Shown here piece by piece: positions 13,558-54,270 of a stretch of 64,000 bases of DNA. Each line of letters opens with the position of its first letter. The first letter of the stretch is position 1. Made by a program: the position numbers and the translations under genes. The stretch covers positions 2,210 to 66,209 of the forward strand of contig VGEU01000006.1 of the NCBI GenBank assembly GCA_016869145.1. The letters are read 5' to 3'. Below the pieces are notes generated by a model. The model was not told the DNA's origin. It saw nothing but the letters and a program-made list of their open reading frames with translations, and did not search any database. This DNA comes from Alphaproteobacteria bacterium (lineage in GTDB: Bacteria; Pseudomonadota; Alphaproteobacteria; MPNO01; VGEU01).

Positions 13558-13569
13558 CGCGGCTACCGG

Positions 13570-21505: not shown

Positions 21506-21557
21506 CGGCGAGAGCGATAGAGCGCGCGCGAGCGCGAGAGAAACAGAGGTTTAGAGA

Positions 21558-21580
21558 GCCGGAGCGGTCGCCGCTCCGGT
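21558..21580 (+). other. intercistronic stem-loop between dctP paralogs 1 and 2
   Basis: ccggagcg-gtcg-ccgctccgg perfect 8-bp stem. Confidence 0.4.
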
Positions 21581-21608
21581 GTGAACGGCAAACACAGGGA
21601 GAAACCTG

Positions 21609-22679: not shown

Positions 22680-22725
22680 GCGCGCCGTCGAGCGGGCGCC
22701 GAAACGAAGAGCACGGAGGACGGTA

Positions 22726-23787: not shown

Positions 23788-23796
23788 GGACGTCGC

Positions 23797-23820
23797 GCCG
23801 GCCCCCGTGACGGGGCCGGC
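23797..23820 (+). other. intercistronic stem-loop between dctP paralog 3 and dctQ
   Basis: gccggccccc-gtga-gggggccggc type 10-bp GC stem, GTGA loop. No U-tract. Confidence 0.45.
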
Positions 23821-23837
23821 CCGCTTCCCGGTCTCGC

Positions 23838-24380: not shown

Positions 24381-25702
24381 TGGCGGAGCTCCCGATCGCG
24401 GCGTGGATGTTTCCCGCCCTCTTTCTCCTAGTCTTTCTCGGCATCCCGGTCTCATTCAGCCTGATCGTCACCGCGCTCGGCTTCGGCTTCGCCTTTCTCG
24501 GCACCAAGGTCACCGGCCAGTTCCACAACGGGCTGATCGGGGTCGCGTCGAACTTCGTCCTCGCGGCGATCCCGCTCTTCGTCTTCATGGGCTCGGTGCT
24601 CGAACGGTCGGGGATCGCGAAGCTTCTCTTCGACGCGATCCGGCTGTTCCTGGGGCGATTGCCGGGCGGCCTCGCGCTGACGACGACCGTCATGTGCGCG
24701 ATCTTTGCCGCGAGCGCGGGCGTCGTCGGCGCGGTCGAGATCCTGGTCGGGCTGATGGCGATCCCGGCGATGACGAAGGCGAACTACAAGCGCGATCTCG
24801 CGGCCGGCACGATATGCGCCGGCGGATCGCTCGGCACCATGATCCCGCCGTCGATCGTCGTCGTGATCTACGCCTCACTCGCCGACATCTCGATCGGCGA
24901 CATGTATGCCGGCATGATCATTCCAGCCGCGGTCATGGTGTGTCTCTTCCTCCTATACATCCTGATCCGCTGCACGATCGACCCCGCGAGCGGACCCGGC
25001 ATACCCTCGACCGAGGTCGACATGACCTTCGGTCAGAAGGTCGTACTCGTCATCAAGGCCTTCATTCCGGCGATCGCGCTGATGATGGCCGTTCTCGGGT
25101 CGATATTCGCCGGCGTCGCCTCGCCCTCCGAGGCGGCCGCGCTCGGTGCGCTCGGGGCGGTGATCCTCAGCATCTGCTACCGGCAATTCTCGATCCGGAT
25201 GATCATCGACGCGATGCGCCAGACCATCCTCATCTCGTCGATGGTGCTGATGATCGTCGTCGGCGGCGTGATGTTCACGGGCGTGTTCATCCTGACCGGG
25301 GGCGGCCAGCTCGTGCGCGAGCTCGTCACGCAGAACCAGCTCTCGCCCTACATGGTGATCTTCCTGTTCCTCGCCGTGATCTTCGTGCTCGGCTTCATCC
25401 TCGACTGGATCTCGATCGTCCTGATCACGATCCCGATCTTCGGCCCGATCGTAAAGACGCTCGGGATCGACCCGGTCTGGTTCGGGGTCCTGGTCTGCAT
25501 CACCATCCAGACGTCCTACCTCACGCCCCCGATGGCGCCCTCGATCTTCTATCTCAGGGCGATCGCGCCCCCGAGCATGACCTATATGGACATGTATAAA
25601 GGCGTGATCCCGTTCATCCTGCTCCAGATCGCAACCCTCGCCTTTGTCGTCTTGTGGCCGAAGAGCGCGACATATCTTCCCGACATCCTGTTCGGGTTCT
25701 GA
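24380..25702 (+). CDS. dctM: TRAP transporter large permease (DctM family)
   Basis: Internal ATG (MAELPIAAWMF) in ORF 23807..25702, TGATG overlap with dctQ. 440 aa polytopic membrane protein. Confidence 0.85.
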   Translation: MAELPIAAWMFPALFLLVFLGIPVSFSLIVTALGFGFAFLGTKVTGQFHNGLIGVASNFVLAAIPLFVFMGSVLERSGIAKLLFDAIRLFLGRLPGGLALTTTVMCAIFAASAGVVGAVEILVGLMAIPAMTKANYKRDLAAGTICAGGSLGTMIPPSIVVVIYASLADISIGDMYAGMIIPAAVMVCLFLLYILIRCTIDPASGPGIPSTEVDMTFGQKVVLVIKAFIPAIALMMAVLGSIFAGVASPSEAAALGALGAVILSICYRQFSIRMIIDAMRQTILISSMVLMIVVGGVMFTGVFILTGGGQLVRELVTQNQLSPYMVIFLFLAVIFVLGFILDWISIVLITIPIFGPIVKTLGIDPVWFGVLVCITIQTSYLTPPMAPSIFYLRAIAPPSMTYMDMYKGVIPFILLQIATLAFVVLWPKSATYLPDILFGF

Positions 25703-32630: not shown

Positions 32631-33947
32631 TCAACGCCCGATGATGGTCGGAAGCCAGGTCGCGAGACCCGGGAAAGCCATCACCAGCATCACCGTCACG
32701 ATCTGGAGTCCGATGAACGGCGCCGCCGCCCAGCAGATCTCGCGCATGGTCGTATCGGTTGGCGCGACGCCCTTCATCACGAACAAGAGAAGCCCGAACG
32801 GCGGCGTCGTGAATCCGATCTCGAGCGCGATCAGCATCATCAGCCCGAACCAGATCGGATCGATCCCCGCCGTGCTGACGAGCGGCATGAAGAACGGGAT
32901 CGTGATCATCATCATGCTGAGCTGATCCATGAACGTCCCGAGGATCAGGAGGATCGTGAGCATGCCGACGACGAGCCAGATCGGCGCGATATCGACGCCC
33001 TCGACGATCGCGAGGAGACCGTCGGTCGCGCCGGAGAAGGCGAGGATCTGTGAATAGGTGATCGAGGCGCAGATGATGAAGAGGATCATCACCGACACCT
33101 TGGCCGTCTCGGTGAGCGCGATCGAGAGCGCCGTCCACGTCAGCGTGCGGTAGGCGGCGGCGGCGACGATGGTCGCGAGCGCGCCGAGCGCCGCCGATTC
33201 CGTCGGCGAGGCATAGCCGCCGAGAATGCTGCCGACCACGACCACGAAGATGCCGAGGAGCGGCACCACCTCGACCAGGATCGGCCGCAGGCGCTGCAAC
33301 AGCGTGAACTTGCCGGCGTCGTAGCCCGGCGCGAGCGTCGGGTCGAGTGCGCAGCGCACAACGACATAGACGAAAAAGAGCCCAGCCATGACGAGGCCCG
33401 GGATGATGCCCGAGATCAGGAGATCGGCGACCGAGATCATCGCGAGACTAGCGAGGATGACCGCGAGCGCCGACGGCGGGATCAGCATCGCGATGCCGCC
33501 CGTGCCGAGGATCGGGCCCATCGCGATCTTCTTCTCGTAGCCGCGCTTGCGCATCTCGGGCAGAAGCGTCGAGCCCAGCATTGCGGTGTTGGCGATCGTC
33601 GAGCCCGAAAGCGCGGAAAAGATCGTCCCGCTCACGATCGCGACGAGCGACAGCCGGCCCGGAACGCGCGCGATCAGCTTGTCGACGGCATCGATCGCAC
33701 GGTGCGCGAGGCCGGTGTGGTAGAGCACCTCGCCCATCAGGAGAAAGAGCGGGATCGGCGTCAGCGCGAACGACGAGACCGCGTCGACCGCGTTGCGCAC
33801 GACCTGCGCGAGGCCCGGCTCGCCGCCGAGAAAGTAGAGCGCGCCCAGGATGTTGACGGCGAAGAAGGCGAACGCGACCGGAAGCCCCAGCATCAGGAGG
33901 ACCAGAAGCCCGCCCACCATCAGCGACAGCGCCCAGTACCACGCCAT
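32631..33947 (-). CDS. dctM: TRAP transporter large permease (DctM family), second system
   Basis: 438 aa polytopic membrane protein. Confidence 0.85.
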   Translation of the reverse strand: MAWYWALSLMVGGLLVLLMLGLPVAFAFFAVNILGALYFLGGEPGLAQVVRNAVDAVSSFALTPIPLFLLMGEVLYHTGLAHRAIDAVDKLIARVPGRLSLVAIVSGTIFSALSGSTIANTAMLGSTLLPEMRKRGYEKKIAMGPILGTGGIAMLIPPSALAVILASLAMISVADLLISGIIPGLVMAGLFFVYVVVRCALDPTLAPGYDAGKFTLLQRLRPILVEVVPLLGIFVVVVGSILGGYASPTESAALGALATIVAAAAYRTLTWTALSIALTETAKVSVMILFIICASITYSQILAFSGATDGLLAIVEGVDIAPIWLVVGMLTILLILGTFMDQLSMMMITIPFFMPLVSTAGIDPIWFGLMMLIALEIGFTTPPFGLLLFVMKGVAPTDTTMREICWAAAPFIGLQIVTVMLVMAFPGLATWLPTIIGR

Positions 33948-33949
33948 CG

Positions 33950-34471
33950 CTAGACGCCGCGGTGGTCAAGATCGGGGCCCGTCTCGGCGCGCCGCTCGCG
34001 CCCGGCCGAGGCGAGCCGGCGCGCGAACTCGATCACGAGAAGGAGCGCGGTCCAGGCGACGAAGGCGAAAATCCACCATTCGGGGAAGATGAACTCCTTG
34101 ATCACCCGCGCCCCTTGCGCCCGCGAGGCGAGTGCGACGGCGGCCGCGTAGTAGAGGATCACGAGCGAAACCGCGAGCCCGATCGCATCCCCGATCGCCT
34201 CGCATCGTGCGCGCGCCCGGGGCGGAAGTCCGGTCAGCACGATATCGACGCGGACATGGCCGCCGAGCCGCAAGACCCACGGCGCGCCGAGGAAGGCGAG
34301 GACGAACATCGCGTACTCGCTCGCCTCGAGGATCCACGGGATCGAGCCCCAGCGCAGATTGCGGAGCACGATGTCGATCGACACACCGACCGTGATGAAG
34401 GCGACGGCCAGCCATGCGCCCATGGCGAGGAGGCGATGGACGGCGTCGTACAACCGGGCGGCGAGCGTCAT
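33950..34471 (-). CDS. dctQ: TRAP transporter small permease (DctQ family), second system
   Basis: 173 aa hydrophobic. Confidence 0.75.
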   Translation of the reverse strand: MTLAARLYDAVHRLLAMGAWLAVAFITVGVSIDIVLRNLRWGSIPWILEASEYAMFVLAFLGAPWVLRLGGHVRVDIVLTGLPPRARARCEAIGDAIGLAVSLVILYYAAAVALASRAQGARVIKEFIFPEWWIFAFVAWTALLLVIEFARRLASAGRERRAETGPDLDHRGV

Positions 34472-34511
34472 GTGGTCGGCGCGGGCGTAGGCGTGGGCGC
34501 AGCCGTTTCTG

Positions 34512-35489
34512 TCACTTCGTGATCAGGGCCTTGAGTTTCGGCGCGTTCTCGGGGTCTAGCTCCATCGCCTCGGCCCAGCCGGATTCGTATGCGATGCGGA
34601 CGTAGTCCTCGGCCATCTTGCCGGTGAGCACGATAGGCTGGATGCCGGCGTCGTCCTGCTCCTTGCGGTAGGCCTTGTCGAGATCGGCGGCCTTGACCAG
34701 CATCTCGTCTTCGAAATCGCGCATGGTCTTGGTCAGGAGGTCGCGCTGCGTCTGGGTCAGCGACTGCCATTTCGCGACGTTCATGATGATGCCGCCCTGG
34801 ACGTTGTAGAACGGCGGATCGACGCGATACTTGATGTGCTTCTCCCACCCCAGGCTCTTGATGTCCCAGGTCGGCCAGCCGAGCCCGTCGATCGTGCCGC
34901 GCTCGAGGCCGACATAGACCTCGCCCGGCTGCATCTGGACCACGGTGGCGCCGAGCGCCCTGAAGAACGCGCGATAGACCGGCGTGATGCGGATGCGGAG
35001 GCCGTTGAGATCGATGTTGTCGATCTTCTTGTCGCGCAGATAGAGGTGGAACGGCACGTTCGAGCCCCAGTGGCCGATATAGACGAGCCCGGCCTTGTCC
35101 ATGTGGAGCTTGTTGATGAAGTCCATCGCGCCGTTCTCGCGCATCTCCTTCGGCGACTTCTGGATCATCTTGAGCGCATCGCCGACCGGCAGAAGGTTCT
35201 GGTAGAAGGTCGACGGCAGGTTGGCCATATCGACGACGCCGGTCTTGACCGCGTTCGCCATCGTGAACGGCGACATCGACCCCGAGGCCTTGATCTCGAT
35301 CGACATCGAGCCCTTTGCGGCGGCGTTGAGCTTCTCGACGAATTCGACGAAGGGCTTGCCGAAGGCATTGTTGTTGGGGACGAAGCTGACCGCGCCGAGC
35401 TTCACCTCCTGCGCCGCGGCGGCGGGCGCGAACGCGGCGAGACAGGCGGCGGTCGTTGCGGCGAGGATGGCGGTCGAGCGGTGGATCAT
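34512..35489 (-). CDS. dctP: TRAP transporter substrate-binding protein (DctP family), second system
   Basis: Internal ATG (MIHRSTAILAATTAACLAAFAPAAAAQ signal peptide) in ORF 34512..35834. Confidence 0.8.
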   Translation of the reverse strand: MIHRSTAILAATTAACLAAFAPAAAAQEVKLGAVSFVPNNNAFGKPFVEFVEKLNAAAKGSMSIEIKASGSMSPFTMANAVKTGVVDMANLPSTFYQNLLPVGDALKMIQKSPKEMRENGAMDFINKLHMDKAGLVYIGHWGSNVPFHLYLRDKKIDNIDLNGLRIRITPVYRAFFRALGATVVQMQPGEVYVGLERGTIDGLGWPTWDIKSLGWEKHIKYRVDPPFYNVQGGIIMNVAKWQSLTQTQRDLLTKTMRDFEDEMLVKAADLDKAYRKEQDDAGIQPIVLTGKMAEDYVRIAYESGWAEAMELDPENAPKLKALITK

Positions 35490-43269: not shown

Positions 43270-44118
43270 ATGACCGAGCCGAAGTTCAAGCGGGGCGAGC
43301 GGGTGAAGGACAAGATCGTGCTGGTCACCGGCGCCGGCTCGATCGGGCCCGGCTGGGGCAACGGCAAGGCGGCCGCCGTCCTCTATGGCCGCGAGGGGGG
43401 CCGGGTCTTCTGCGTCGATCGCGCCCTCGCCGCGGCCGAGGAAACCATGGCCATCATCGAGCGCGAGGGCGGCATCGCCGCAGCGCACGCCGCCGACGTC
43501 ATGAAGTCAGCCGACGTCAAGGCGATGGTCGATGCCTGCATCGCCCGCTTCGGCCGCGTCGACATCCTGCACAACAATGTCGGCGGGTCCGGGCCGGGCA
43601 ACACGCTCGCCGATACCGAGGAAGACGACTGGGATGCCGTGATGGCCCGCAACGTCAAGTCCGCCTATATGTGCTGCCGTGCCGTGCTGCCGCACATGGA
43701 GAAGCAGGGCGGCGGCGCGATCGTCAACGTCTCCTCCATCGTCGGCATCCGCCACGCGGGCTTCCACACCATGGCCTACTCGGCCTCGAAGGGTGCGCTC
43801 AACCAGTTCACCCAGAACATCGCCGTCCAGCTCGCGCCGAAGAACATCCGCGCCAATTGCGTGGCGCCGGGGCTGATCGACACGCCGTTCATCCATCGCG
43901 AGATCAACGGCGTGCCGGGCTACAAGCGGCGCGGCTTTTCCTCGGTCGATGAGTACCGCCACTCGCGCGATCACGCGATCCCGGCCGGCCGATCGGGCAC
44001 CGGCTGGGACATCGCCTTCGCATCGCTCTTCCTCGCCTCCGACGAGGCGTCCTACGTCACAGGCCAGCTCCTGACCGTCGATGGCGGCCTCACGAGCTCG
44101 GTCGGCAAGATCGACTGA
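43270..44118 (+). CDS. SDR-family oxidoreductase
   Basis: 282 aa. VLVTGAGSIGPG motif. Confidence 0.75.
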   Translation: MTEPKFKRGERVKDKIVLVTGAGSIGPGWGNGKAAAVLYGREGGRVFCVDRALAAAEETMAIIEREGGIAAAHAADVMKSADVKAMVDACIARFGRVDILHNNVGGSGPGNTLADTEEDDWDAVMARNVKSAYMCCRAVLPHMEKQGGGAIVNVSSIVGIRHAGFHTMAYSASKGALNQFTQNIAVQLAPKNIRANCVAPGLIDTPFIHREINGVPGYKRRGFSSVDEYRHSRDHAIPAGRSGTGWDIAFASLFLASDEASYVTGQLLTVDGGLTSSVGKID

Positions 44119-45476
44119 TGGCCCTTCTCGCGATCCATAACGCGCTCCTCGTCCTCGCCGGGGGCGAACGCCACGGCGGTGTCGTCGTCGGCGACGACGG
44201 ACGGATCGAGGCGGTCCTCGACGGCGCGCGCACCGCCTCGGCGGCAACCGTCGTCGATGCGCACGGGCGGCTTCTGTTCCCGGGTTTCGTCGACGCCCAT
44301 GTCCACATGCGCGAGCCCGGCTACACCCAGAAGGAGGACTTCACCTCGGGCACGCTCGCCGCGGCCGCCGGCGGCGTGACGACCGTCCTCTGCATGCCGA
44401 ACACGCGCCCCTCCATCACGGACTTCCCCGGGCTCGAGAACGCACGGCGGGCGGCGGAGGCGCGCGCCGCGGTCGATTTCGGCTTCCAGGCCGGGATCAC
44501 GCGCGGCAACCTCACCGACCTCGCGGGGCTTTGGAGCGCAGGTGTCACCTCGTTCGAGGCGTTCATGGCCGATGTGCCGGACGACGACCGGCTCGACACG
44601 GCCGAGCACCTGCGCGCCGCGCTCGCCGAGGTCGCGCGCTGCGATGCGATCGTCGGCGTCTATTGCGGCGCGCAGTCGGTCATCGCCGCCGAGCGCACGC
44701 GCCTCCAGCGAATCGGGCGGAACGATGTCCACGCCTTCGCCGAGGCACGGCCGGCCCTCAACGAGGTCGCCGGGCTCGCCCTCCTGCTCGAGATCGCCGC
44801 CGCGACCGGCGCGCGGATCGTCGTCCGCCAGGTGTCGAGCGGCCGCGGCGCCGCGCTCATCCGGCGCGCCAAGGCCGATGCGCTCTGCCGCCTGATCGCG
44901 GCCGAGGTGACGCCGCATCACCTCCTCCTCGATCGGAGCGCACTCGACCGGCACGGCACCGCGGCGCAGATGCTGCCGCCGCTCCGCACGCCGGCCGACA
45001 ATGCCGCCCTCCTCGCCGGCCTCGGCGACGGGACGCTCGATTTCGTCGCGAGCGACCACGCACCACATGCGCCGGCCGAGAAGGACCGTGCCGATGCGTG
45101 GTCGGCGGCGAGCGGCACGCCCGGCCTCGACACCCTAGTCCCCGCCGTCCTCCATTGCGCCCGCACCGCGCGGCTCACCTGGCCTCTTGTGGCCGAGATC
45201 CTCGCGCACCGACCGGCGGCGCTGTTCGGCCTCGACAAGCGCAAGGGACGCATCGCGGTCGGGCTCGACGGCGACCTCGTGCTGGTCGATCCCGATGCGA
45301 CACGAACGGTCGAGCGGGCGATGATCCGCTCGCGCGCCGGCCGCTCGGCCTTCGAGGGGACGACGCTGGTCGGCTGGCCCGTCCTCACCGTGCTCCGCGG
45401 CCACGTCGTCGCGGAGAGCGGCCGGCCGGTCCTCGGCCATCTGCGCGGGCGGCTCGTCATCCGCAACGCCGCCTGA
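44118..45476 (+). CDS. type I dihydroorotase-like cyclic amidohydrolase (DHOase/hydantoinase/allantoinase family)
   Basis: 452 aa. DAHVHMREPG...GGVTTVLCMPNT motifs. TGATG coupling with the upstream SDR. Confidence 0.75.
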   Translation: MALLAIHNALLVLAGGERHGGVVVGDDGRIEAVLDGARTASAATVVDAHGRLLFPGFVDAHVHMREPGYTQKEDFTSGTLAAAAGGVTTVLCMPNTRPSITDFPGLENARRAAEARAAVDFGFQAGITRGNLTDLAGLWSAGVTSFEAFMADVPDDDRLDTAEHLRAALAEVARCDAIVGVYCGAQSVIAAERTRLQRIGRNDVHAFAEARPALNEVAGLALLLEIAAATGARIVVRQVSSGRGAALIRRAKADALCRLIAAEVTPHHLLLDRSALDRHGTAAQMLPPLRTPADNAALLAGLGDGTLDFVASDHAPHAPAEKDRADAWSAASGTPGLDTLVPAVLHCARTARLTWPLVAEILAHRPAALFGLDKRKGRIAVGLDGDLVLVDPDATRTVERAMIRSRAGRSAFEGTTLVGWPVLTVLRGHVVAESGRPVLGHLRGRLVIRNAA

Positions 45477-45490
45477 ACAGCGAGGGCGCC

Positions 45491-46261
45491 ATGGCGCAGC
45501 AACCCGGCAAGATGACCTATATCCCGCCCGCACACGGCGCGGCGAGCGTGCTCGGCGAGAACGGCCGGATCGGGGTGATCGTGCCGGCCAACAACTCGGT
45601 GCTGGAGCCCGAGCTGTGGGCGCGGCTGCCGCCGGGCGTCGCGCTCTACGCGACCCGCATCCTCGCCCGCGGCAACCTCACGCGCGAGGCGGTGGTCGCG
45701 ATGGAGAAGTCCGTCGACCGCGCGGTCGACGAGCTGGTCGCGACGATGGTCGATGTCATCGCCTATGCCGACATGGTGACGACCTTCGTCATGGAGGACG
45801 GCTGGAACGAGAAGAAGACCGAGGCGATCGCGCGCCACGCCGGCGTGCCGTGCGTGTCGGCCTGGACGGCGCTCCGCGACGCGCTCGCCGCGCTCGAGGT
45901 CAAGAGGTTCGCGCTCCTCACGCCCTATCCGAGGCCGATCCACGCGCTGTGCCGCCCGTTCTTCGAGCACAAGGGCTTCACGCTGAGCGGCGAGGCGACC
46001 CTCGACATCCTCGCCATGACCGACGTGCCCAAAGTATCGGTCGAACGGGTGCGCGAGGCGGTCGAGGCGATCGACCGCCGCGAGGCGCAGGCGATCGTCG
46101 CGCTGGCGACCGATCTCCCGACATTCGCCGCGATCGCGATGCTGGAACGCCGCTTCGCGATCCCCGTCCTCACGTCGAACCAGACGCTTCTGTGGCGGGC
46201 GCTCCGCGCCGTCGGCTACAAGGGCGGCGTCGTTGGGCTCGGCGGCCTCTTCTCCGTGTAA
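45491..46261 (+). CDS. Asp/Glu/hydantoin racemase-family protein (maleate isomerase / arylmalonate decarboxylase / hydantoin racemase-like)
   Basis: Internal ATG (MAQQPGKMTYIPP) in ORF 44531..46261. 256 aa. Confidence 0.6.
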   Translation: MAQQPGKMTYIPPAHGAASVLGENGRIGVIVPANNSVLEPELWARLPPGVALYATRILARGNLTREAVVAMEKSVDRAVDELVATMVDVIAYADMVTTFVMEDGWNEKKTEAIARHAGVPCVSAWTALRDALAALEVKRFALLTPYPRPIHALCRPFFEHKGFTLSGEATLDILAMTDVPKVSVERVREAVEAIDRREAQAIVALATDLPTFAAIAMLERRFAIPVLTSNQTLLWRALRAVGYKGGVVGLGGLFSV

Positions 46262-46272
46262 GGACCACGCCC

Positions 46273-47424
46273 ATGGACCCGCGCCCCGCCGCCCTCCGGG
46301 CCCTGTCGATGCCGCGCTCCGCCATCCGCGAGATCATGGTGCTCGCGGCTAGCCGGCCCGACGTCGTCCATCTCGAGGTCGGCGAGCCCGATTTCGGCAC
46401 GCCCGACCATATCGTCGCGCGCGCGGTCGCAGCGCTCCGCGAGGGCTGGACGCGCTATACGCCGAACCCCGGCATCCTCCCCTTGCGCGAGCGCATCGCG
46501 GCGCGGTTCGCCGCAAGGCTCGGACGCGCGATCGCCGTCGATCGGGTGGTGGCGACGACGGGCGCCGTCGGCGCGCTCTACACCGCGGTCAATCTCGTCG
46601 CCGATGTCGGCGATGAGGTGCTGATCCCCGATCCGGGCTGGCCCAACTATCACAGCATGGTGCATCTCGCCGGCGCGGTGCCGGTGCACTATGCGCAGCC
46701 CGCCGCGATCGGCTACCTCCCCGACCCCGACCGGATCGCCCATCAGATCACGCCCCGCACCAAGGCGATCCTCTACAACACGCCGGGCAATCCGACCGGC
46801 GTCGTCTTTCCGCGCGAGATCGTCGCCGCGCTCGCCGGCCTCGCCGAGAAGCACGGGCTCTATCTCATCGCCGACGAGGTCTACGAGGACATCGTGTTCG
46901 AGGGCGCGCATGTCTCGGCGGCCTCGTTCGGGCTCGACGATCGGGTGTTCGTCGTCTCCGGCGCCTCGAAGAGCTATGCGATGACGGGCTGGCGGGTCGG
47001 CTTTCTTCTCTGCCCGCCCGCCCTCGGCCCCCTCGCCGCGATCCTGCAGGAGCCGGTCACCTCGCACACGGCCGCGGTGTCGCAGGTCGCCGCCGAAGCC
47101 GCGCTCGCCGGACCGCAGGACTGCGTCGCCGCCGCGCGCGAGACCTTCCGCCGCCGGCGCGACATCGTGCTCGACATTCTCGGCAATACCGGGCTTCTCG
47201 CCGCCCCGCCGTCGGGCGCCTTCTATTCGCTGGTCGGCATCGGCGATCGCCCGGCCGATTCGATGGCGTTCGCCAAGGCGCTCCTGATCGAGAAGGGCGT
47301 CGCGACCGTGCCCGGCTCGACCTTCGGCCCGTCGGCGGCGCGGACGGTCAGGATCGCGTTCACGACCGATGACCGCTCGCTGCGGACCGGGCTCGAACGG
47401 CTCCGCGATCAGGTCCTCGGCTAG
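46273..47424 (+). CDS. pyridoxal-phosphate-dependent aminotransferase (class I/II)
   Basis: Internal ATG (MDPRPAALRAL) in ORF 45616..47424. SGASKSYAMTGWRVG PLP-lysine motif. Confidence 0.75.
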   Translation: MDPRPAALRALSMPRSAIREIMVLAASRPDVVHLEVGEPDFGTPDHIVARAVAALREGWTRYTPNPGILPLRERIAARFAARLGRAIAVDRVVATTGAVGALYTAVNLVADVGDEVLIPDPGWPNYHSMVHLAGAVPVHYAQPAAIGYLPDPDRIAHQITPRTKAILYNTPGNPTGVVFPREIVAALAGLAEKHGLYLIADEVYEDIVFEGAHVSAASFGLDDRVFVVSGASKSYAMTGWRVGFLLCPPALGPLAAILQEPVTSHTAAVSQVAAEAALAGPQDCVAAARETFRRRRDIVLDILGNTGLLAAPPSGAFYSLVGIGDRPADSMAFAKALLIEKGVATVPGSTFGPSAARTVRIAFTTDDRSLRTGLERLRDQVLG

Positions 47425-48620
47425 GGGAGAATGCGCGCGACCGCGTCAGCGAGGACGCGGCAGCCGAGCACGATGTCGTCGTCCGCGGTGTTCTCGGCGA
47501 TATCGTGGCTGCGCCCGCCGATCGAGGGAATGAACAGCATCGCGGCCGGCATGTGACGCGCGAGCACGATCGCATCGTGACCGGCGCCGGAGGGCATTAC
47601 GAGAGGCTCGGCGCCGTGTGCGCCCGCGGCCGCCGCGAGATGCGCCCGGAGACCGGCATCCATCGCCGTCGGCGCGATCGCGGCCGTCCGCGTCGCCGCG
47701 ACCGTGACCGGCCAGCCGCCCATCTCGGCGACGAGCGTGTGGACGGCGCCCTCCATCGCATTGAGCACGGCGGGCTCGGTGTCGCGGCACTCGACGAGGA
47801 GCTCGGCGGATGCCGGCACGACATTCGCCGCGCCGGGTGCGAACGTCGCCGCGCCGAGATTCCACACCGTATCGCTCCGCGCGATCGCCCGGAAGGCACG
47901 GAGCAGCGCATGACCGAAACCGATCAGCGCCGCGCCGGCGTCCTTCCGCATCGCCATCGGGGTCGTCCCGGCGTGGTCGGCCTGGCCGGCGAAGCTGATC
48001 TTGTAGCGGCGGATGCCGACGATGCCGGTGACGACACCGATACGCCGGCCCTCGGCCTCGAGCCGCGGCCCCTGCTCGATATGCGCCTCGAGATAAGCGC
48101 GGTAACGGCCCGGCTCGTTGCGTGCCGGCCGCGCGCCCGCGAGCCCGCTCGCCGCGATCGCCTCGCCGAGGACGCGTCCGTCGGGTGAGCGCGCACCGGC
48201 CGCGCTCGCCGGATCGATCTCGCCGCAGAAGGCGAGGCTGCCGAGGAGGGGATGGAAGGCCCCCTCCTCCTCCTGGAACGAGATCACATCGACCGCCTTG
48301 CCCGCCGCGGTCGCCGCCCGCGCGATCGCGAGCCCGTACATCACACCGAGCGCACCGTCGAGCCAGCCGCCTTTGGGCACCGAATCCGTGTGCGAGCCGA
48401 CAAGGACGGACGGCCCACCGGCGCGCGAGCGCCCGAACACGTTGCCGACATTGTCGATCCAGCTGTCATGCCCGATCGCCGCGAGCTCGCCCGCGACCCA
48501 GCGTCGCGCCGCGAGATCGTCGGCGCTGAACGCCGGGCGGTTCACGCCGGAGCCCACCTTGCCGAACGTCGCGAGGCGGCGGAGATCGGCGAGAAGGCGC
48601 TCTCCGTCGATCGCGAGCAT
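47421..48620 (-). CDS. M20-family Zn-dependent amidohydrolase (allantoate amidohydrolase / N-carbamoyl-L-amino-acid hydrolase type), copy 1
   Basis: Internal ATG (MLAIDGERLLADL) in ORF 47421..48770. 399 aa. Confidence 0.75.
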   Translation of the reverse strand: MLAIDGERLLADLRRLATFGKVGSGVNRPAFSADDLAARRWVAGELAAIGHDSWIDNVGNVFGRSRAGGPSVLVGSHTDSVPKGGWLDGALGVMYGLAIARAATAAGKAVDVISFQEEEGAFHPLLGSLAFCGEIDPASAAGARSPDGRVLGEAIAASGLAGARPARNEPGRYRAYLEAHIEQGPRLEAEGRRIGVVTGIVGIRRYKISFAGQADHAGTTPMAMRKDAGAALIGFGHALLRAFRAIARSDTVWNLGAATFAPGAANVVPASAELLVECRDTEPAVLNAMEGAVHTLVAEMGGWPVTVAATRTAAIAPTAMDAGLRAHLAAAAGAHGAEPLVMPSGAGHDAIVLARHMPAAMLFIPSIGGRSHDIAENTADDDIVLGCRVLADAVARILP

Positions 48621-48637
48621 ACGGCGGCGTTCCGCGC

Positions 48638-49336
48638 TCAGCCGGGATACTCGGCGATGCCGCCGTGCTCGCGCGACCACACGATCGGATCGGCGAGAAA
48701 CTTCTTCACCTCGTCGATGGTCGCCTGGTCGAAATAGCTCCCGGCCTCGGCCGCCTCGACGACGTCCCACCAGGTCGCGAGATAGTGGAGCGTGATGCCG
48801 ATGTCCTGCATGATCTTCGCGGTGTGCGGGAATATGCCGTAGTGGAACAGCACGAAGGCATGCTCGACGGAAGCGCCGGCGTTGCGGAGCGCCTTGCAGA
48901 AATTGACCTTGCTGCGGCCGTCGGTGGTCAGGTCCTCGACCAGGATGCCGCGCCAGTTCTCCTTGAGCGCCCCTTCGATCTGCGCGAGGCGGCCGAACCC
49001 CTTGGGTTGCTTGCGCACATAGAGCATCGGGAGCTGCATGCGGTCGGCGATCCAGGCGGCGAACGGGATGCCGGCCGTCTCGCCGCCCGCGACCGCGTCG
49101 AGCTGCTCGAAGCCGACCTCGCGCAGGATGGTCGTCGTCGAGAAATCGATCAGCGCCTGGCGCGCGCGCGGATAGGAGATCAGCTTGCGGCAGTCGATGT
49201 AGACCGGGCTCGCCCAGCCCGAGGTGAAGATGAACGGCCGCTCGGCGTTGAAATAGGCGGCCTTCACTTCCAACAGGATTCTCGAGGCGACGTTGGCTAT
49301 TTGCTTCTTATCGAGCAGTTCGGCGCCTAAGTTCAT
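48638..49336 (-). CDS. pyrE: orotate phosphoribosyltransferase
   Basis: Internal ATG ([11 protein letters not shown]) in ORF 48638..49408. PRTase motif [10 protein letters not shown]. Confidence 0.7.
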
Positions 49337-49443
49337 CGAGATTTCCCGAGCGGTGCCGCCGGTGGCGCGTTTCCGCGCGGGCGGGGTCGGGGGATTGATT
49401 ACCGCCATTCGGAAAGGGCGGCAAACGGATTCTTCCGGCCGGT

Positions 49444-50487
49444 TCAGCCCGCTACGAGACGCCAGCGCAGGGTCTCGCCGGCGCGGAACGGGATCACCGC
49501 CTCACCCTCCTCGATCGCGACCGCGGCGGGAATGCGCGTGCCCGAGTTGACGAGCGAGATCCGCTGCTCGTTCGGCGGCATGCGATAGAACGCGGGCCCA
49601 TTGAGCGAGGCGAAGGCCTCGAGCGCGTCGAGCGCATTGTCCTCGTCGAAGACCTCGGCATAGAGCTCGAGCGCGCCCGGCGCATTGAAGATGCCGGCGC
49701 AGCCGCATGCGTTCTCCTTGTCGCGCAGGCGATGCGGCGCCGAGTCGGTCCCGAGGAAGAAGCGTGGATTGCCGGAAGTCGCCGCGCGCCGGAGCGCGAG
49801 CCGGTGCCGCTCGCGCTTGGCGATCGGCAGGCAGTACATGTGCGGGCGGATACCGCCCTGGAAGATGGCGTTGCGGTTGATCATCAAATGGTGCGCGGTG
49901 ATCGTCGCGCCCACCTGATGCGGAGTGTTTATCACGAACTCGACACCTTCTGCGGTCGTCACATGCTCGAACACGACGCGGAGCGTCGGCATGCGGTCGA
50001 GAAGCGGCGCGAGGATGCGGTCGAGGAACACCGCCTCGCGGTCGAACACGTCGACGTCCGGATCGACCACCTCGCCATGAACGAGGAGCGGCATGCCGAT
50101 CTCGGCCATCGTCGTGAGCACGCGGTCGATCTTGCGAATGTCGGTGACGCCGGCATGGGAGTTCGTCGTCGCGCCGGCCGGGTAGAGCTTCATCGCGATC
50201 CAGGCGCCCGACTTGAAACCACGCGCGACCTCCTCGGCTTCGATCGTATCGGTGAGATAGCCGGTCATCAGCGGCGTGAAATCGGCGCCGCGCGGCATCG
50301 CGGCGAGAATGCGATCGCGATAGGCCCGCGCCGCCCCCGCCGTCGTCACCGGTGGCACCAGATTCGGCATGATGATCGCGCGGGCGAAGCGCTCGACCGT
50401 ATAGGGAAGCACGTTCGACAGCATCGTTCCGTCGCGGAGATGGAGATGCCAGTCGTCCGGCCGGCGGATCGTCACCACCGCGGTCAT
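49444..50487 (-). CDS. pyrC: dihydroorotase, type II (homodimeric, E. coli PyrC-like)
   Basis: 347 aa. [15 protein letters not shown]-terminus nearly identical in pattern to E. coli PyrC. Confidence 0.8.
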
Positions 50488-50490
50488 CGG

Positions 50491-51801
50491 TCACGCCGCC
50501 GGATCGAGCAGCGCCGCCTGGAGGAGGTCGACGCCGCGCATGAAATCCTCGATCGCCATCGCCTCGCGCGGATTGTGCGAGCCGTGCGCGTTCCGAATGA
50601 AGATCATCGCCGACGGCACGCCGGCGCCGAGGAAGATCGCGGCGTCGTGGCCGGGCCCGGACGGCATGCGGCAGGTCGGGATCTCAAGCCGCTTGGCGAG
50701 CGCGTCGAGGTGCTCGATCCAGCGCTCGCCGATCCTCTCCGGCACCGCGAATACCCGCCGGTCGAACTCGAAGCGCACGCCGCGGGTCTTGGCGACCACG
50801 TCGCACTCGGTCTGCACCAGGCGATGGAAGGTCTCGAGCGTGTCGAGGCTGAGGCTCCGGAACTCGAGGCTGAACTCGACCTCGCCCGGGATACGCGACA
50901 TCGCGTGCCGGCTCGGATCGGTCGTGAAGATGCCGCTCGTGATGACGAGGTCGATGCCGCGCTCCATGAGAACGCGCCAGTGCTCGTCGAGCCGCATCAG
51001 GACGTCGGCTACCGCAAGCACGGAATCGTGGCGGAGCCAGCGCGGGATCGCGCCCGAGTGTCCGGCCTCGCCGTGGCAGACGATCTTCAGATGGCGGACA
51101 TAGCCACGGATGCCGGTGACGATGCCGACCGGCAGCGCGCGATCGACGAGGACGGGGCCCTGCTCGATGTGGACCTCGACGAACGCCGCGAAGTCCTCCG
51201 CCCGCGCCAAGGGCTCGCCCGAGGCGATCGCGACGATGTCGGCGCCGGCGGCTTCCATATAGGTCGCGAGCGGCTTGCCCGTATCGCGATGGCGGCGCTC
51301 GAGGTCGAGGGGATCGAGCCGGCCGAACAGCGCGCTCGAGCCGAGATAGGCCTTGCCGAACCAGGCGCTCTCCTCGCCGCGGATGCCGTAGAGGCGGATC
51401 GTCCGCCGCGGCGTGATCCCGGCCGCCTTGATCCGCGACAGCGCGACGAAGCCGGCGACGACACCGGCCGCGCCGTCGAAATTGCCGCCCTGCGGCACGG
51501 AATCGAGATGCGATCCGGTCGCGACGACAGGCCGTCCGGGCTCGCTGCCGGGCAGCTCGATCACGAGGTTGGCGGCGCGATCGCGCGCGACGGCGAAGCC
51601 GGCCTTGCGCGCCTCGGCGGCGATGAACTCGTGCGCCGCGCCCTCGCCGGCATCGTAGGAGGCGCGCGTGATGCCGACGCCGTCGAAGGACAGTCGACGG
51701 AGGCTGTCGAACAAAGCGCGCGCGAGCGCCGCGCCGTCGCCGGCACGCGCGAGCGAGCCCGCGGAATCCTGTGCGGCCGTCGTCGGACGATCGTCCGGCA
51801 T
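50491..51801 (-). CDS. M20-family Zn-dependent amidohydrolase (N-carbamoyl-amino-acid / allantoate amidohydrolase type), copy 2
   Basis: C-terminal 436 aa of read-through ORF 50491..52962, from ATG at 51801 (MPDDRPTT...). The upstream 380 codons are R/G-rich noise. Confidence 0.7.
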   Translation of the reverse strand: MPDDRPTTAAQDSAGSLARAGDGAALARALFDSLRRLSFDGVGITRASYDAGEGAAHEFIAAEARKAGFAVARDRAANLVIELPGSEPGRPVVATGSHLDSVPQGGNFDGAAGVVAGFVALSRIKAAGITPRRTIRLYGIRGEESAWFGKAYLGSSALFGRLDPLDLERRHRDTGKPLATYMEAAGADIVAIASGEPLARAEDFAAFVEVHIEQGPVLVDRALPVGIVTGIRGYVRHLKIVCHGEAGHSGAIPRWLRHDSVLAVADVLMRLDEHWRVLMERGIDLVITSGIFTTDPSRHAMSRIPGEVEFSLEFRSLSLDTLETFHRLVQTECDVVAKTRGVRFEFDRRVFAVPERIGERWIEHLDALAKRLEIPTCRMPSGPGHDAAIFLGAGVPSAMIFIRNAHGSHNPREAMAIEDFMRGVDLLQAALLDPAA

Positions 51802-51809
51802 GATGCGCC

Positions 51810-52745
51810 TCACGCCTCGCGGGCGCGACGGGCCGGCGCTGCGCTCGGCAGCGCGCGACCGATCAGATCGGTGACGCGGGCGATCTTGCGCTCGGTGCAC
51901 CAGGCCGCGAGCCCGTCGACGATCCGCACCATCGCCTTCGGATAGAGGAACGTCGCCGTGCCGACCTGGACCGCGCTCGCGCCGGCGGCGAGGTACTCGA
52001 CGACATCGGTCGCGTTCATGATCCCGCCCGAGCCGATGATCGGGATGCGGACGGCCTGTGCGCACTGCCAGACCATGCGGAGGATGACCGGCTTCACGGC
52101 CGGTCCGGAGAGGCCGCCGGTGCCGGTGCCGAGCTTCGGCGCGAGCGTCTCGAGATCGATCGCCATGGCGAGGATGGTGTTGGCGACCACGACCGCGTCG
52201 GCGCCGGCGGCCTCGGCGGCGCGCGCGCTCGCGGTCGCCGATCCGGTATTGGGCGTGAGCTTCGCCCACAGCGGCCAGTCGGTGCGGACCCGCATGCGGC
52301 TCACGACGTCGTAGGTCGCATCGGCCTCCATCGCGACGGCGTGTCCGCCCTCCTCGATATTGGGGCAGGAGATGTTGATCTCGATCGCAGCGACGCCTGG
52401 AACCGAGACGCGCTCGGCCATCATCGCGAAGTCCTCGGGCGAATCCGCCGAGACGCTGACGACGAGTGGCGCCGCATAGCGGGCATAGAACGGCACCGTC
52501 TTGGCGAGGAAGTGATCGATGCCCTTGCTCGGAAGCCCGATCGAATTGAGCATGCCGGACGGCGTCTCGGCGACGCGCGGTGTCGGGTTGCCGTCGCGGA
52601 AGCCGGGCGTGACGCTTTTCGTGACGTAGGCGCCGAGCCGGTTGAGGTCGACGACCCGCGCGAGCTCCTCCGAGAACGTGCCGGAACCCGGCATGATCGG
52701 GTTGCGGAGCGCGAGCGATCCGATGCGAACGCCGAGATCTACCAT
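51810..52745 (-). CDS. pyrD: dihydroorotate dehydrogenase class 1B catalytic subunit (PyrD-B like, FMN)
   Basis: Internal ATG (MVDLGVRIGSLALRNPIMPGSGTF) in ORF 51810..53213. Active-site Cys in NISCPN. Confidence 0.75.
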   Translation of the reverse strand: MVDLGVRIGSLALRNPIMPGSGTFSEELARVVDLNRLGAYVTKSVTPGFRDGNPTPRVAETPSGMLNSIGLPSKGIDHFLAKTVPFYARYAAPLVVSVSADSPEDFAMMAERVSVPGVAAIEINISCPNIEEGGHAVAMEADATYDVVSRMRVRTDWPLWAKLTPNTGSATASARAAEAAGADAVVVANTILAMAIDLETLAPKLGTGTGGLSGPAVKPVILRMVWQCAQAVRIPIIGSGGIMNATDVVEYLAAGASAVQVGTATFLYPKAMVRIVDGLAAWCTERKIARVTDLIGRALPSAAPARRAREA

Positions 52746-53584
52746 GACAACGCCTCGTGTAGTCCGAAGACAGGCCCGTCGCGGCAGACACGGAGATTGG
52801 CGACGGTGCCGTTGCGCTCGATCTGGCGCACGCAGCAGAAGCACATGCCGAGCCCGCACGCCATCTGCTGCTCGATCGCGACCTGGCCGCCGATCCCGTG
52901 CGCGCGCCCGAGCGTCTGGAGGAGCTTGAGGAGCCGGTTGGAACCGCAGGTGAAGAAGGCATCGGCGCGACCGGCCCGGATCAAGTCGAGCAGAAGCCGC
53001 TCCACCTGCGGCACGGCGCTCGTTCCCTCCTCGTCGGTGACGGTGAGGACCTCGGCACCGGCATCGGCGAACACCGACTGCGACATCAGATCGAGCTTGC
53101 TGCGCGCGCTCAAGACCGCGGTGATGGCGACGCCCGAGGCCTGTGCCAACTGGGCGAGCGGCGCGAGGGTGGCGAGGCCGACGCCGCGGGCGAGGACCAC
53201 GATGCGCCGCCACGCCGGATCGAGCGAGAAGCCGAGACCGAGCGGACCGAGCATGTCGAGCGTGTCGCCCGGCGCGAGAAGAGCGAGCGCGCGGGTGCCG
53301 GCGCCGGTCACATGGTACAGAAACTCGACCGTCCCCCCATTAGGATGCATCTGGTAGACGCTCATCGGGCGGCGCAGGAAGACCGCCTCGTCGGGTAGCG
53401 GCGGACAGAGGAGGTTGAAGAACTGGCCGGGCCGGATCTTGCGCGCCGCCTCGGGCGCCGACACGACGAGATGCTTGTAGCGGGCGTTGACGGCGGCGTT
53501 GACGAGGACCGTGCCGAGATATTCATCGCCCGGAACCGGCAGCGGCGTCGGGGCCTCGACGGCGGCGAGCGTATCGGCCCTCAT
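52739..53584 (-). CDS. pyrK: dihydroorotate dehydrogenase electron-transfer subunit (PyrK-like, FAD + 2Fe-2S)
   Basis: 281 aa. RRPMSV FAD motif and C-terminal CGLGMCFCC 2Fe-2S cysteine cluster. Overlaps the pyrD start. Confidence 0.75.
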   Translation of the reverse strand: MRADTLAAVEAPTPLPVPGDEYLGTVLVNAAVNARYKHLVVSAPEAARKIRPGQFFNLLCPPLPDEAVFLRRPMSVYQMHPNGGTVEFLYHVTGAGTRALALLAPGDTLDMLGPLGLGFSLDPAWRRIVVLARGVGLATLAPLAQLAQASGVAITAVLSARSKLDLMSQSVFADAGAEVLTVTDEEGTSAVPQVERLLLDLIRAGRADAFFTCGSNRLLKLLQTLGRAHGIGGQVAIEQQMACGLGMCFCCVRQIERNGTVANLRVCRDGPVFGLHEALSW

Positions 53585-53718
53585 CGGTCACTGCGCGGTG
53601 CGCGCGGGCCGGCGCATCCGCGCGCCCGCCGGTTGCGCCCCGTCCGTTCGGAATTCATCCGTGTCCCCATGCCTAGCCCGAGGCCGCCTTCCCGTTCACC
53701 GCCGTCTTGTTGCGGTCC

Positions 53719-53775
53719 TTGTTTTAAGTCCAATCGTTAAATGATTGAAAAATTTTAATACTAAACTCATCCTCA
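53719..53775. promoter_or_regulatory. AT-rich (about 25-30 percent GC) element in the divergent promoter region between the pyrK operon and a small hypothetical gene
   Basis: ttgttttaagtccaatcgttaaatgattgaaaaattttaatactaaactcat within a 70 percent GC genome. Contains TTGAAA / TAATAC-like hexamers. Confidence 0.4.
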
Positions 53776-53820
53776 GGCCCGTCAATAGGGTGTGCCGGCG
53801 CCACGATCGCTGTGTGGCGG

Positions 53821-53886
53821 CCGGCGGCGGCGCCGCCACGGCCCGCCGGAATGGTAGCCGATCGCCCCGCGGGCGGGCCCGCGGGG
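53821..53886. promoter_or_regulatory. GC-rich palindromes (ccggcgg...ccgccgg; ccccgcgggc-gg-gcccgcgggg) upstream of the small hypothetical gene
   Basis: Perfect 10-bp inverted repeat with 2-nt spacer at ~53865-53886 and a ggcggcgccgcc palindrome at ~53827-53838. Confidence 0.35.
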
Positions 53887-53958
53887 CGGGGCCATGACCG
53901 CTTGATTTATCCGCGCGATCCGGCAGCATCGCGCGATACCGGGACGGAGACGTGTTCG

Positions 53959-54270
53959 ATGACCTTGAACGAACTGTATGAAGGGCTGAAGCAGCGCGAC
54001 CGTGGCATGGCCGCGTTCGACCGCTTCATGCAGGATTGCCGGAGCGGGATCGAGAGCGACCGCGCCCACGCGGCCGCCTATCATCTCCTCCTCAGCATCA
54101 CCGCCCGGTTCTGCGACCGATACGACCGCGAGCCTCTTCCTCTCACGACCGCCCAGGAAGCCAAGGACGCCCTCCTCCGCCTCACCGACCAGGCCCGCGC
54201 CGCCGAGACCCGGAGCGCGGACGAGCAGATCCGAGTCCTCAACGCGATCGCGACGACCGAACTCGGCTGA
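53959..54270 (+). CDS. hypothetical small alpha-helical protein (103 aa)
   Basis: Internal ATG (MTLNELYEGLKQ) in ORF 53812..54270. No recognisable family. Confidence 0.45.
   Translation: MTLNELYEGLKQRDRGMAAFDRFMQDCRSGIESDRAHAAAYHLLLSITARFCDRYDREPLPLTTAQEAKDALLRLTDQARAAETRSADEQIRVLNAIATTELG

Follow-up and report, generated by a model that had tools for sequence, protein, structure and literature searches.

Why should an alphaproteobacterium carry genes of the pyrimidine biosynthesis families interleaved with two hydrolases of the M20 carbamoylase family? The question is raised by a 64,000-nucleotide stretch of Alphaproteobacteria bacterium DNA (assembly GCA_016869145.1, contig VGEU01000006.1, positions 2,210 to 66,209), called the window here, and in particular by a group of genes between its positions 43270 and 54270. 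We consider it probable that the region consists of two adjacent catabolic modules, and that one of them, the pyr module (pyrK-pyrD-M20b-pyrC-pyrE plus a small gene; module 1), breaks orotate down to L-aspartate with the hydrolase M20b acting as ureidosuccinase. A dedicated orotate-type catabolic or salvage module is likewise probable, with good support from comparative genomics. The pyr module appears to be a widespread proteobacterial accessory cluster for the use of orotate, and possibly of dihydroorotate or carbamoyl-aspartate too.

The predicted pathway would begin with the PyrK/PyrD class 1B flavoenzyme, which would reduce orotate to L-dihydroorotate with NADH. PyrC would then open the dihydroorotate ring to give N-carbamoyl-L-aspartate, and M20b would irreversibly hydrolyze this intermediate to L-aspartate, CO2 and NH3 (ureidosuccinase, EC 3.5.1.7). 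PyrE would provide a salvage branch from orotate to orotidine monophosphate (OMP), and in some genomes aspartase would carry on from L-aspartate to fumarate. Which way the flux runs, what M20b acts on and what PyrE contributes are inferred; the protein families, active-site residues and neighborhood pattern described below were observed directly. Reduction of orotate by NADH is thermodynamically favorable.

Reading frames were chosen by third-position GC and by reading of the open reading frames (ORFs), the former because the window is about 68% GC, and start codons were checked. Families were assigned with Pfam and NCBIfam profile models, and bit scores were compared with the cutoff of each model. 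The region contains eleven genes, four on the plus strand, six on the minus strand and one ORF of 103 amino acids (aa) divergent from pyrK:

43270-44118, plus strand: short-chain dehydrogenase/reductase (SDR) oxidoreductase, 282 aa, opening the plus-strand operon (Pfam adh_short, adh_short_C2).
44118-45476, plus strand: cyclic amidohydrolase AH452, 452 aa (TIGR00857 passed).
45491-46261, plus strand: protein of the Amdase/Asp-Glu-racemase/maleate-isomerase superfamily (Pfam Amdase).
46273-47424, plus strand: class I/II aminotransferase, 383 aa (Pfam Aminotran_1_2).
47421-48620, minus strand: M20a, carbamoylase-family hydrolase, 399 aa, closing the minus-strand operon (TIGR01879).
48638-49336, minus strand: PyrE, orotate phosphoribosyltransferase (OPRT), 232 aa (NF001729).
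49444-50487, minus strand: PyrC, homodimeric type II dihydroorotase (DHOase), 347 aa (TIGR00856).
50491-51801, minus strand: M20b, Zn hydrolase of the carbamoylase/allantoate-amidohydrolase family, 436 aa (TIGR01879).
51810-52745, minus strand: PyrD, catalytic subunit of a class 1B dihydroorotate dehydrogenase (DHOD), 311 aa (NF005574).
52739-53584, minus strand: PyrK-like electron-transfer subunit with flavin adenine dinucleotide (FAD) and 2Fe-2S sites, 281 aa, first gene of the minus-strand operon (Pfam DHODB_Fe-S_bind).
53585-53958, no strand: divergent intergenic region of 374 nt with an AT-rich tract, a promoter-like site and an inverted repeat.
53959-54270, plus strand: small predicted all-helical protein, 103 aa, whose ORF diverges from pyrK and which has homologs beside the pyr module elsewhere.

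The pyrK and pyrD genes overlap by 7 nt, and gaps of only 8 nt and 3 nt separate pyrD from M20b and M20b from pyrC. The SDR and amidohydrolase genes share an ATGA; where the two operons converge, their ends overlap by 4 nt. An initial annotation of this DNA, made from its letters alone, had listed ten of these genes and described them as tightly joined. The overlaps and the 3-8-nt gaps agree with that description, and the gene list is correct, since Pfam and NCBIfam bear out each family and comparisons with solved structures agree for PyrD, PyrC and PyrE; the small gene at 53959-54270 is our addition. The same annotation had remarked on the absence of pyrB and carAB, and indeed none of pyrB, carAB, pyrF or a class 2 pyrD is found among the genes called in the window.

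The first enzyme of the predicted pathway is well defined on its catalytic side. PyrD scores 346 bits against the class 1B model NF005574 (cutoff 269) and at most 83 bits against class 2 models. When aligned to the Lactococcus lactis DHODB subunit 1ep1 (236 bits, with about half of the positions identical as judged by eye), it has retained the catalytic cysteine of the SCPN motif and the orotate-binding residues, namely the lysine of VTKS, the asparagine of MLNSIGL and the asparagine of ANT. By these sequence features PyrD is a class 1B DHOD and not PreA. An identity as PreTA or dihydropyrimidine dehydrogenase was rejected on model scores (140 bits for PreA, cutoff 335), and the profile scores do not place the protein with the dihydropyrimidine dehydrogenases. 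Its partner, the PyrK-like protein, aligns over its full length with the NCBIfam model of the DHOD-B electron-transfer subunit, yet stays below the cutoff (124 bits, cutoff 270); its translation shows a C-terminal four-cysteine 2Fe-2S motif and an RPMSV FAD motif, and Pfam DHODB_Fe-S_bind matches. Of the class 1B pair of the initial annotation, PyrD is thus borne out, and the PyrK-like protein is a candidate for the electron-transfer subunit.

Of the two other biosynthetic-type enzymes, PyrC had been called housekeeping-type, and its scores agree. PyrC reaches 446 bits with TIGR00856 (cutoff 293) and about 423-433 bits with the solved dihydroorotases 6cty, 4lfy, 1xge and 1j79. PyrE reaches 375 bits with NF001729 (cutoff 245), shares 66.5% identity with 4ohc, a solved OPRT, and has both the catalytic flexible-loop lysine (RKQPKGFG) and the motif that binds phosphoribosyl pyrophosphate (PRPP). 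Judged from these matches, PyrC and PyrE of the window are a bona fide dihydroorotase and OPRT.

Orotate reductase and dihydroorotase are therefore present in the module by homology, and M20b is the candidate for the third activity by its gene context and by a pair of arginines found in its family. M20b scores 273 bits against TIGR01879 (cutoff 204), a broad hydantoinase/carbamoylase model of peptidase family M20, and its nearest solved structure is the L-carbamoylase 3n5f. M20a passes the same model, so that the two M20 carbamoylase-family paralogs originally proposed are both borne out; neither reaches the cutoff of any equivalog or named subfamily model, including AllC (201-224 bits, cutoff 598) and ErtE (264-303 bits, cutoff 520). 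The di-metal ligands (His, Asp, Glu, His, His) are kept in both proteins in the motifs GSHxDS, EE, HIEQGP and SHNP. What sets M20b apart are Arg254 and Arg303, each at least 95% conserved in 120 homologs. Arg254 lies in a PRW motif where 3n5f, 1z2l and M20a have PM-x, and Arg303 lies in an x-RIPG motif that replaces the N-[VS]-[VI]-P of other carbamoylases. These segments touch the substrate in relatives, and the two arginines would fit the second carboxylate of carbamoyl-aspartate.

The genes next to M20b in other genomes point the same way. An aspartate ammonia-lyase gene (NF008909, 732 bits, cutoff 510) directly follows M20b in five Alcaligenaceae genomes and also lies inside the cluster of Pseudolabrys sp. 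Root1462 (six species in all), as would be expected if M20b releases L-aspartate.

How general is the arrangement? M20b homologs are numerous at 50-73% identity, and the order pyrK-pyrD-M20-pyrC is repeated on a Joint Genome Institute metagenome contig. A scan with an M20b alignment, using one genome per GTDB species, returned 80 loci (numbered here with the prefix L). Their hosts include Acetobacteraceae/Roseomonas, Bradyrhizobium, Pseudolabrys, Rhodospirillales, Burkholderia, Pandoraea, Variovorax, Pusillimonas, Bordetella and Comamonas, with outlying loci in one Acidobacteriota metagenome-assembled genome (MAG), one Vicinamibacterales MAG and one Maridesulfovibrio genome. Neighbors were counted by tblastn with ten window proteins in 61 loci from different species that have at least 3 kb on both sides of M20b. 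A PyrE-type gene was found at 52 of the 61 (85%), PyrK/PyrD at 37 (61%) and PyrC at 17 (28%), where it follows M20b; the PyrK-like gene co-occurs with PyrD in 35-37 of them. By architecture, the 61 loci comprise 19 with PyrK/D and PyrE, 18 with PyrE only, 11 with PyrK/D, PyrC and PyrE, five with PyrK/D only, four with PyrC and PyrE, two with PyrK/D and PyrC, and two without any of these partners. The pyr arrangement, whose conservation in other genomes the initial annotation had suggested looking for, recurs around M20b in dozens of species and is for that reason far from chance.

Individual layouts show how the module varies. In an annotated Variovorax record the order is porin-MFS-PyrK-PyrD-M20-PyrC-HTH-OPRT-small protein (MFS, major facilitator superfamily transporter; HTH, helix-turn-helix regulator), and on a Roseomonas marmotae plasmid a LysR gene is followed by PyrK-PyrD-M20-OPRT. 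Burkholderia sp. YI23 has only porin-MFS-PyrK-PyrD-M20b, a minimal reductive set. In vivo, a class 2 DHOD, being quinone-linked, does not work in reverse, whereas PyrC is freely reversible; the minimal set of importer, PyrK/PyrD and M20b therefore corresponds to the steps that housekeeping enzymes cannot supply. At the other extreme, Rhodospirillaceae MAGs hold an XRE-M20b-pyrC-pyrE unit among pcm, tolC and valS, without PyrK/PyrD, which shows that a pyrC-pyrE pair in a housekeeping setting can have M20b joined to it.

In a separate observation, several M20b loci (L023, 3468-5554; L036; L059; L084; L088, 12373-15735; and L090, 12416-15182) adjoin genes typical of oxidative pyrimidine or s-triazine ring catabolism. 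The neighbors there are a ring-opening amidohydrolase of the AtzD/barbiturase family with an OCD-like protein, and molybdopterin oxidoreductases, which suggests larger pyrimidine-catabolic islands.

Recurrent partners beyond the enzymes were sought by clustering all neighboring ORFs in 78 loci. An MFS transporter gene was called in 28 of these; a regulator of the XRE-type HTH kind is present in 20 loci and one of LysR type in 13. Porins (in Burkholderia and Variovorax) and TctC-type binding proteins also recur near the pyr module. For the two MFS copies tested, the nearest model was the aromatic-acid/H+ symporter family TIGR00895, with 354 and 345 bits, below its cutoff of 418.55. This kinship faintly suggests that orotate, as a planar heteroaromatic carboxylate, would suit the importer family better than carbamoyl-aspartate does.

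The 103-aa protein of the window (53959-54270) has no significant Pfam or NCBIfam match. It belongs to a family of small proteins of about 100-108 aa that adjoins the pyr module in 24 further genome loci and in the Klebsiella and Variovorax plasmid clusters; loci that have it include L005, L011, L036, L049-L051, L055, L058, L063, L066, L069, L082, L087, L088 and L090. A single-sequence AlphaFold2 model predicts five helices at low confidence (predicted local distance difference test score of 58).

Between this gene and pyrK, a sigma-70-like promoter, TTGACG-16-TAGTAT, faces pyrK on the minus strand (53785-53758) in an AT-rich tract. Direct reading of the sequence revealed a short inverted repeat, CAATC-N7-GATTG, in the AT-rich intergenic tract upstream of pyrK, which could have a functional role. 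Elsewhere, a TCTCA-N4-5-TGAGA palindrome is located about 40-140 nt upstream of pyrK in L058, L065, L081 and L082, with a similar element further upstream in L021; it does not occur in the window, where the upstream tract carries CAATC-N7-GATTG instead. The palindrome of the alphaproteobacterial clusters may be an operator.

The pyr module is also mobile. It is present on 74 PLSDB records, of which 53 are Klebsiella plasmids, and on secondary replicons of Burkholderia, Variovorax, Roseomonas and Cupriavidus. On the Klebsiella plasmids an MFS gene is followed by pyrK-like-DHOD-M20-pyrC-HTH regulator-small protein, about 1.4 kb from lacY-lacZ; one example is the K. pneumoniae plasmid NZ_CP050823.1 (L087, 55981-75162), and for several of the records the source was a milk or mastitis isolate. 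A megablast search of 5,426 complete Escherichia coli genomes found no match to the Klebsiella plasmid cluster. Klebsiella has a complete chromosomal de novo pyrimidine pathway with a class 2 PyrD, and the pyr module is accessory there for this reason.

This distribution bears on a rival explanation of the locus, plain biosynthesis, in which pyrK/pyrD, pyrC and pyrE would be the de novo genes of this MAG, with class 1B replacing class 2, and both M20 genes would be unrelated neighbors. Such an explanation accounts for the canonical equivalog scores of pyrC and pyrE, the 66.5% identity of PyrE to a solved OPRT, and the absence of an importer or regulator beside the cluster in the window. However, M20b is wedged between pyrD and pyrC (gaps of 8 nt and 3 nt), a position that it keeps in dozens of species. 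Plasmids carry the same module in hosts with complete de novo pathways, and in none of the annotated loci inspected does it come with pyrB, carAB or pyrF. We regard a purely biosynthetic role as most improbable.

The PyrE-type genes beside M20b raise a more serious alternative. They fall into two classes. Canonical copies, among them the one in the window, are 60-72% identical to 4ohc and keep the loop lysine. In the divergent paralogs the identity to 4ohc is 39-53% and the PRPP motif is retained, and most of them either have Leu, Val, Ile or Met in place of the lysine or have lost part of the loop through a three-residue deletion; variant loop motifs include RPLGIG and GWG. Of four divergent paralogs scanned, the three with the loop lysine replaced or deleted fall below the OPRT cutoff, and the fourth, with Arg at that position, passes. 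PyrE-like genes, most without the loop lysine, adjoin M20b at L002, L005, L011-L016, L019-L022, L025-L026, L029, L031-L041, L043, L048-L050, L052, L056-L057, L059-L060, L062, L070-L072, L074-L075, L078, L080 and L083-L086. The divergent paralogs may be ligand-binding or neofunctionalized OPRT-like proteins.

The alternative is salvage: the cluster would import orotate, dihydroorotate or carbamoyl-aspartate and convert it to OMP via PyrC, an oxidative PyrK/PyrD and PyrE, leaving M20b only as an overflow or nitrogen-release valve. A salvage function would sit well with a PyrE-type gene being the most constant neighbor of M20b (52/61), with the canonical PyrE of the window and with the M20b-pyrC-pyrE units that lack PyrK/PyrD in the housekeeping neighborhood of Rhodospirillaceae. 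Yet clusters without PyrE (Klebsiella plasmids, Burkholderia YI23, Pandoraea) still keep importer, PyrK/PyrD and M20b, and most of the PyrE paralogs linked to the cluster have lost their catalytic-loop lysine. Furthermore, the hosts already own the housekeeping enzymes that salvage needs, and the aspartate ammonia-lyase linkage points to the release of carbon and nitrogen. Taken together, salvage as the main function is unlikely, although less so than biosynthesis.

Breakdown of orotate to L-aspartate thus remains our preferred account of the pyr module, and several observations weigh against it. The strongest partner of M20b is PyrE-type (85%), not PyrK/PyrD (61%), and the 18 loci that combine M20b with PyrE only are unexplained by a pure orotate-to-aspartate pathway. 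The role given to the M20b arginines is read from an alignment. In the window itself, pyrC and pyrE look like canonical housekeeping copies, with pyrC 3 nt from M20b, and no homologs of the importer or regulators seen at other loci were found. Because of these features the operon may serve anabolic as well as catabolic roles, and the minus-strand operon could also serve biosynthesis in this organism.

What, then, of the genes on the plus strand? The initial annotation had treated all ten genes as one system, and here the comparison leads elsewhere. The SDR, amidohydrolase, Amdase-like and aminotransferase genes form with M20a a separate conserved module, independent of the pyr module (module 2), and M20a belongs to it functionally even though it is the last gene of the minus-strand operon. 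Of the 80 M20b loci, just one, in a Xanthobacteraceae MAG (L058), has module 2 beside the pyr module. A Rhodospirillales MAG (L092) is syntenic with positions 35.5-48.6 kb of the window, with the SDR in the same position, and its contig ends at M20a. In Pseudolabrys (L094) the order is ABC transporter-Amdase-aminotransferase-M20-OCD-amidohydrolase-GntR and in L093 it is OCD-amidohydrolase-Amdase, with no pyr genes near module 2 at either locus. The aminotransferase follows the Amdase-like gene in L058, L092 and L094, and orthologs of M20a sit with both there. A dedicated catabolic or salvage function is accordingly upheld for pyrK-pyrD-M20-pyrC(-pyrE), through its association with MFS genes, porins, regulators, aspartate ammonia-lyase and plasmids, and is not upheld for all ten genes.

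Nor do the module 2 proteins closely resemble those of the hydantoinase process, to which they had been likened. The Amdase-like protein does belong to the Asp/Glu/hydantoin-racemase superfamily, as first annotated, but lacks the catalytic cysteines of a racemase: its nearest solved structure is the maleate isomerase 2xec, whose Cys76 and Cys194 align with Asp94 and Ala206, and both substitutions are invariant in 120 of the 120 closest homologs. With both catalytic cysteines replaced, a canonical hydantoin racemase, maleate isomerase or Amdase was rejected as its identity. Hundreds of homologs share 60-75% identity with it; they are 237-241 aa long and cover about 93% of the query, and the true start may be Met8 at 45512. 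In the loci looked at, this subfamily always occurs with a DHOase-like amidohydrolase.

That amidohydrolase, AH452, scores 301 bits with TIGR00857 (cutoff 279) and falls below the equivalog cutoffs of TIGR02033 (232, cutoff 393), allantoinase TIGR03178 (309, cutoff 358) and ErtD (218, cutoff 600), so that the hydantoinase, allantoinase and dihydropyrimidinase cutoffs are all missed. Its nearest solved structures are the L-hydantoinase 1gkr and then the DHOase 3mpg. The DHOase-type motif HVHMREPG (HVHxR(E/D)PG in the subfamily) is present together with an MPNT substrate motif, and a glutamate (SFE) occupies the position of the carbamylated metal-bridging lysine of cyclic amidohydrolases. This glutamate is kept in four orthologs (L092, 6503-7858; L093, 6631-7977; L058, 5043-6290; L094, 12469-13761). 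M20a shares just 32% identity with M20b; its substrate motifs, PM and NVVP, are the canonical ones, and it scores 284 bits with TIGR01879 (cutoff 204) and 429 with NF009529 (cutoff 508). The best matches of the aminotransferase are sub-threshold and are aspartate aminotransferases (NF041091, 308 bits, cutoff 550).

From these parts, module 2 would open a carboxylated cyclic ureide to an N-carbamoyl amino acid, decarbamoylate it and transaminate the amino acid to a 2-oxo acid, which is probably the chemistry at work. One speculative candidate substrate is 5-carboxymethylhydantoin; it opens to carbamoyl-aspartate and would thereby explain the occasional adjacency of module 2 to module 1. An alternative, in line with the initial annotation, would join all ten genes into one pathway for another cyclic ureide; a 5-substituted hydantoin, 5-carboxymethylhydantoin and a dihydropyrimidine are examples. 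The modules are adjacent here and in the Xanthobacteraceae MAG (the L092 contig stops at M20a), and the DHOase-type Arg/Asn motifs of AH452 mean that its product could be N-carbamoyl-aspartate, an intermediate of module 1. Against such a pathway, 79 of the 80 M20b loci lack module 2, and module 2 stands alone in L094, with its own ABC transporter and GntR regulator, and in L093. PyrD, moreover, keeps its orotate-binding residues, and the racemase-like protein has no catalytic cysteines. A single ten-gene pathway is therefore quite improbable, about as much so as plain biosynthesis, and two neighboring modules remain the favored description.

The rest of the window gives the setting. Positions 1-17 kb carry pepN, hrpB and glycogen genes, and a catabolic-looking stretch begins at about 20 kb, with two tripartite ATP-independent periplasmic (TRAP) transport systems, luciferase-like monooxygenases, TauD enzymes, UbiD, an amidase, an Amidohydro_3 protein and an FAA hydrolase. 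At 20552-25702 (plus strand) three DctP-family TRAP solute-binding genes lie in tandem ahead of dctQ and dctM, and a second complete TRAP system occupies 32631-35489 on the minus strand. A glgB-like gene for glycogen branching enzyme (11377-13569, minus strand) has a single in-frame TAA at 12427-12429 in a conserved stretch; the gene could be a pseudogene, or the stop could reflect strain variation or a mistake in the assembly.

Going one step further, we tentatively propose, with somewhat less than even confidence, that M20b is the missing ureidosuccinase gene (EC 3.5.1.7). M20b, PyrK/PyrD and PyrC would then make up an aerobic orotate-eating pathway that is widespread and horizontally mobile, carried among other places on Klebsiella lac plasmids and equipped with two new non-enzymatic or neofunctionalized parts, the OPRT-like proteins without the lysine and the helical protein of about 100 aa. 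M20b is in any case a concrete and testable candidate. In many genomes the cluster genes carry biosynthetic names (dihydroorotate dehydrogenase, pyrC, orotate phosphoribosyltransferase), and metabolic reconstructions would be corrected if these genes were seen as accessory paralogs. Orotate is abundant in milk; the position of the Klebsiella module next to lacYZ and its presence in some milk and mastitis isolates suggest a possible niche adaptation. Module 2, for its part, contains two undescribed enzyme subfamilies, a racemase-fold protein without the cysteines and a DHOase-like hydrolase with Glu for the carbamylated lysine.

How much of this is new is best seen beside the systems already known. 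In the searchable literature, from which subscription journals are mostly absent and in which an earlier description may therefore be missing, no description of an orotate-catabolic gene cluster or of a ureidosuccinase gene was found, nor was any report found of orotate growth or fermentation depending on these genes. In PMC4016543, a 'reaction module' logic is discussed for a PyrD-family dehydrogenase, a cyclic amidohydrolase and a carbamoylase; the PyrD-like families X1 and X2 of that study have other gene contexts and were set aside as matches to this cluster.

Reductive uracil/thymine catabolism (PreT/PreA or PydA, dihydropyrimidinase, beta-ureidopropionase) has the same enzyme order as module 1, and its carbamoylase is an M20 protein in some organisms. 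Module 1 differs in that its PyrD scores as DHOD 1B, the partner is PyrK-like and not PreT, and the ring opener is a true type II dihydroorotase. Module 2 shares with the Hyu systems a 1gkr-like cyclic amidohydrolase, an M20 protein (M20a) and a racemase-superfamily protein. Unlike those systems, its racemase-like protein has no catalytic cysteine, AH452 has DHOase-type motifs with Glu for the carbamylated lysine, and an aminotransferase and an SDR are added. ErtD (hydantoin-5-propionate amidohydrolase) and ErtE (N-carbamyl-L-glutamate amidohydrolase) of ergothioneine utilization come from the same two families, and their NCBIfam models match AH452 and both M20 proteins; the scores, however, are far below cutoff (218 against 600 and 264-303 against 520), and no ergothionase-like or thiourocanate-enzyme-like genes occur among the genes annotated near the cluster.

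The closest precedent is the reductive orotate fermentation of Clostridium oroticum, in which orotate reductase, dihydroorotase and ureidosuccinase were shown biochemically in the 1950s and the reductase was later assigned to class 1B DHOD. To our knowledge, the gene of its ureidosuccinase was never assigned. The reactions predicted for module 1 are the same (orotate to dihydroorotate, N-carbamoyl-L-aspartate and finally L-aspartate, CO2 and NH3), and an NADH-linked flavoenzyme of PyrK/PyrD type would again be involved. The differences lie in host and equipment: C. oroticum is a fermenting Firmicute, whereas the hosts of module 1 are mostly aerobic Alpha-, Beta- and, through plasmids, Gammaproteobacteria, and module 1 comes with an MFS importer, porin, XRE/LysR regulators, a PyrE-type gene and a new small protein. 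The chemistry is thus known, and what module 1 adds is a candidate gene for ureidosuccinase in a new genomic and ecological setting.

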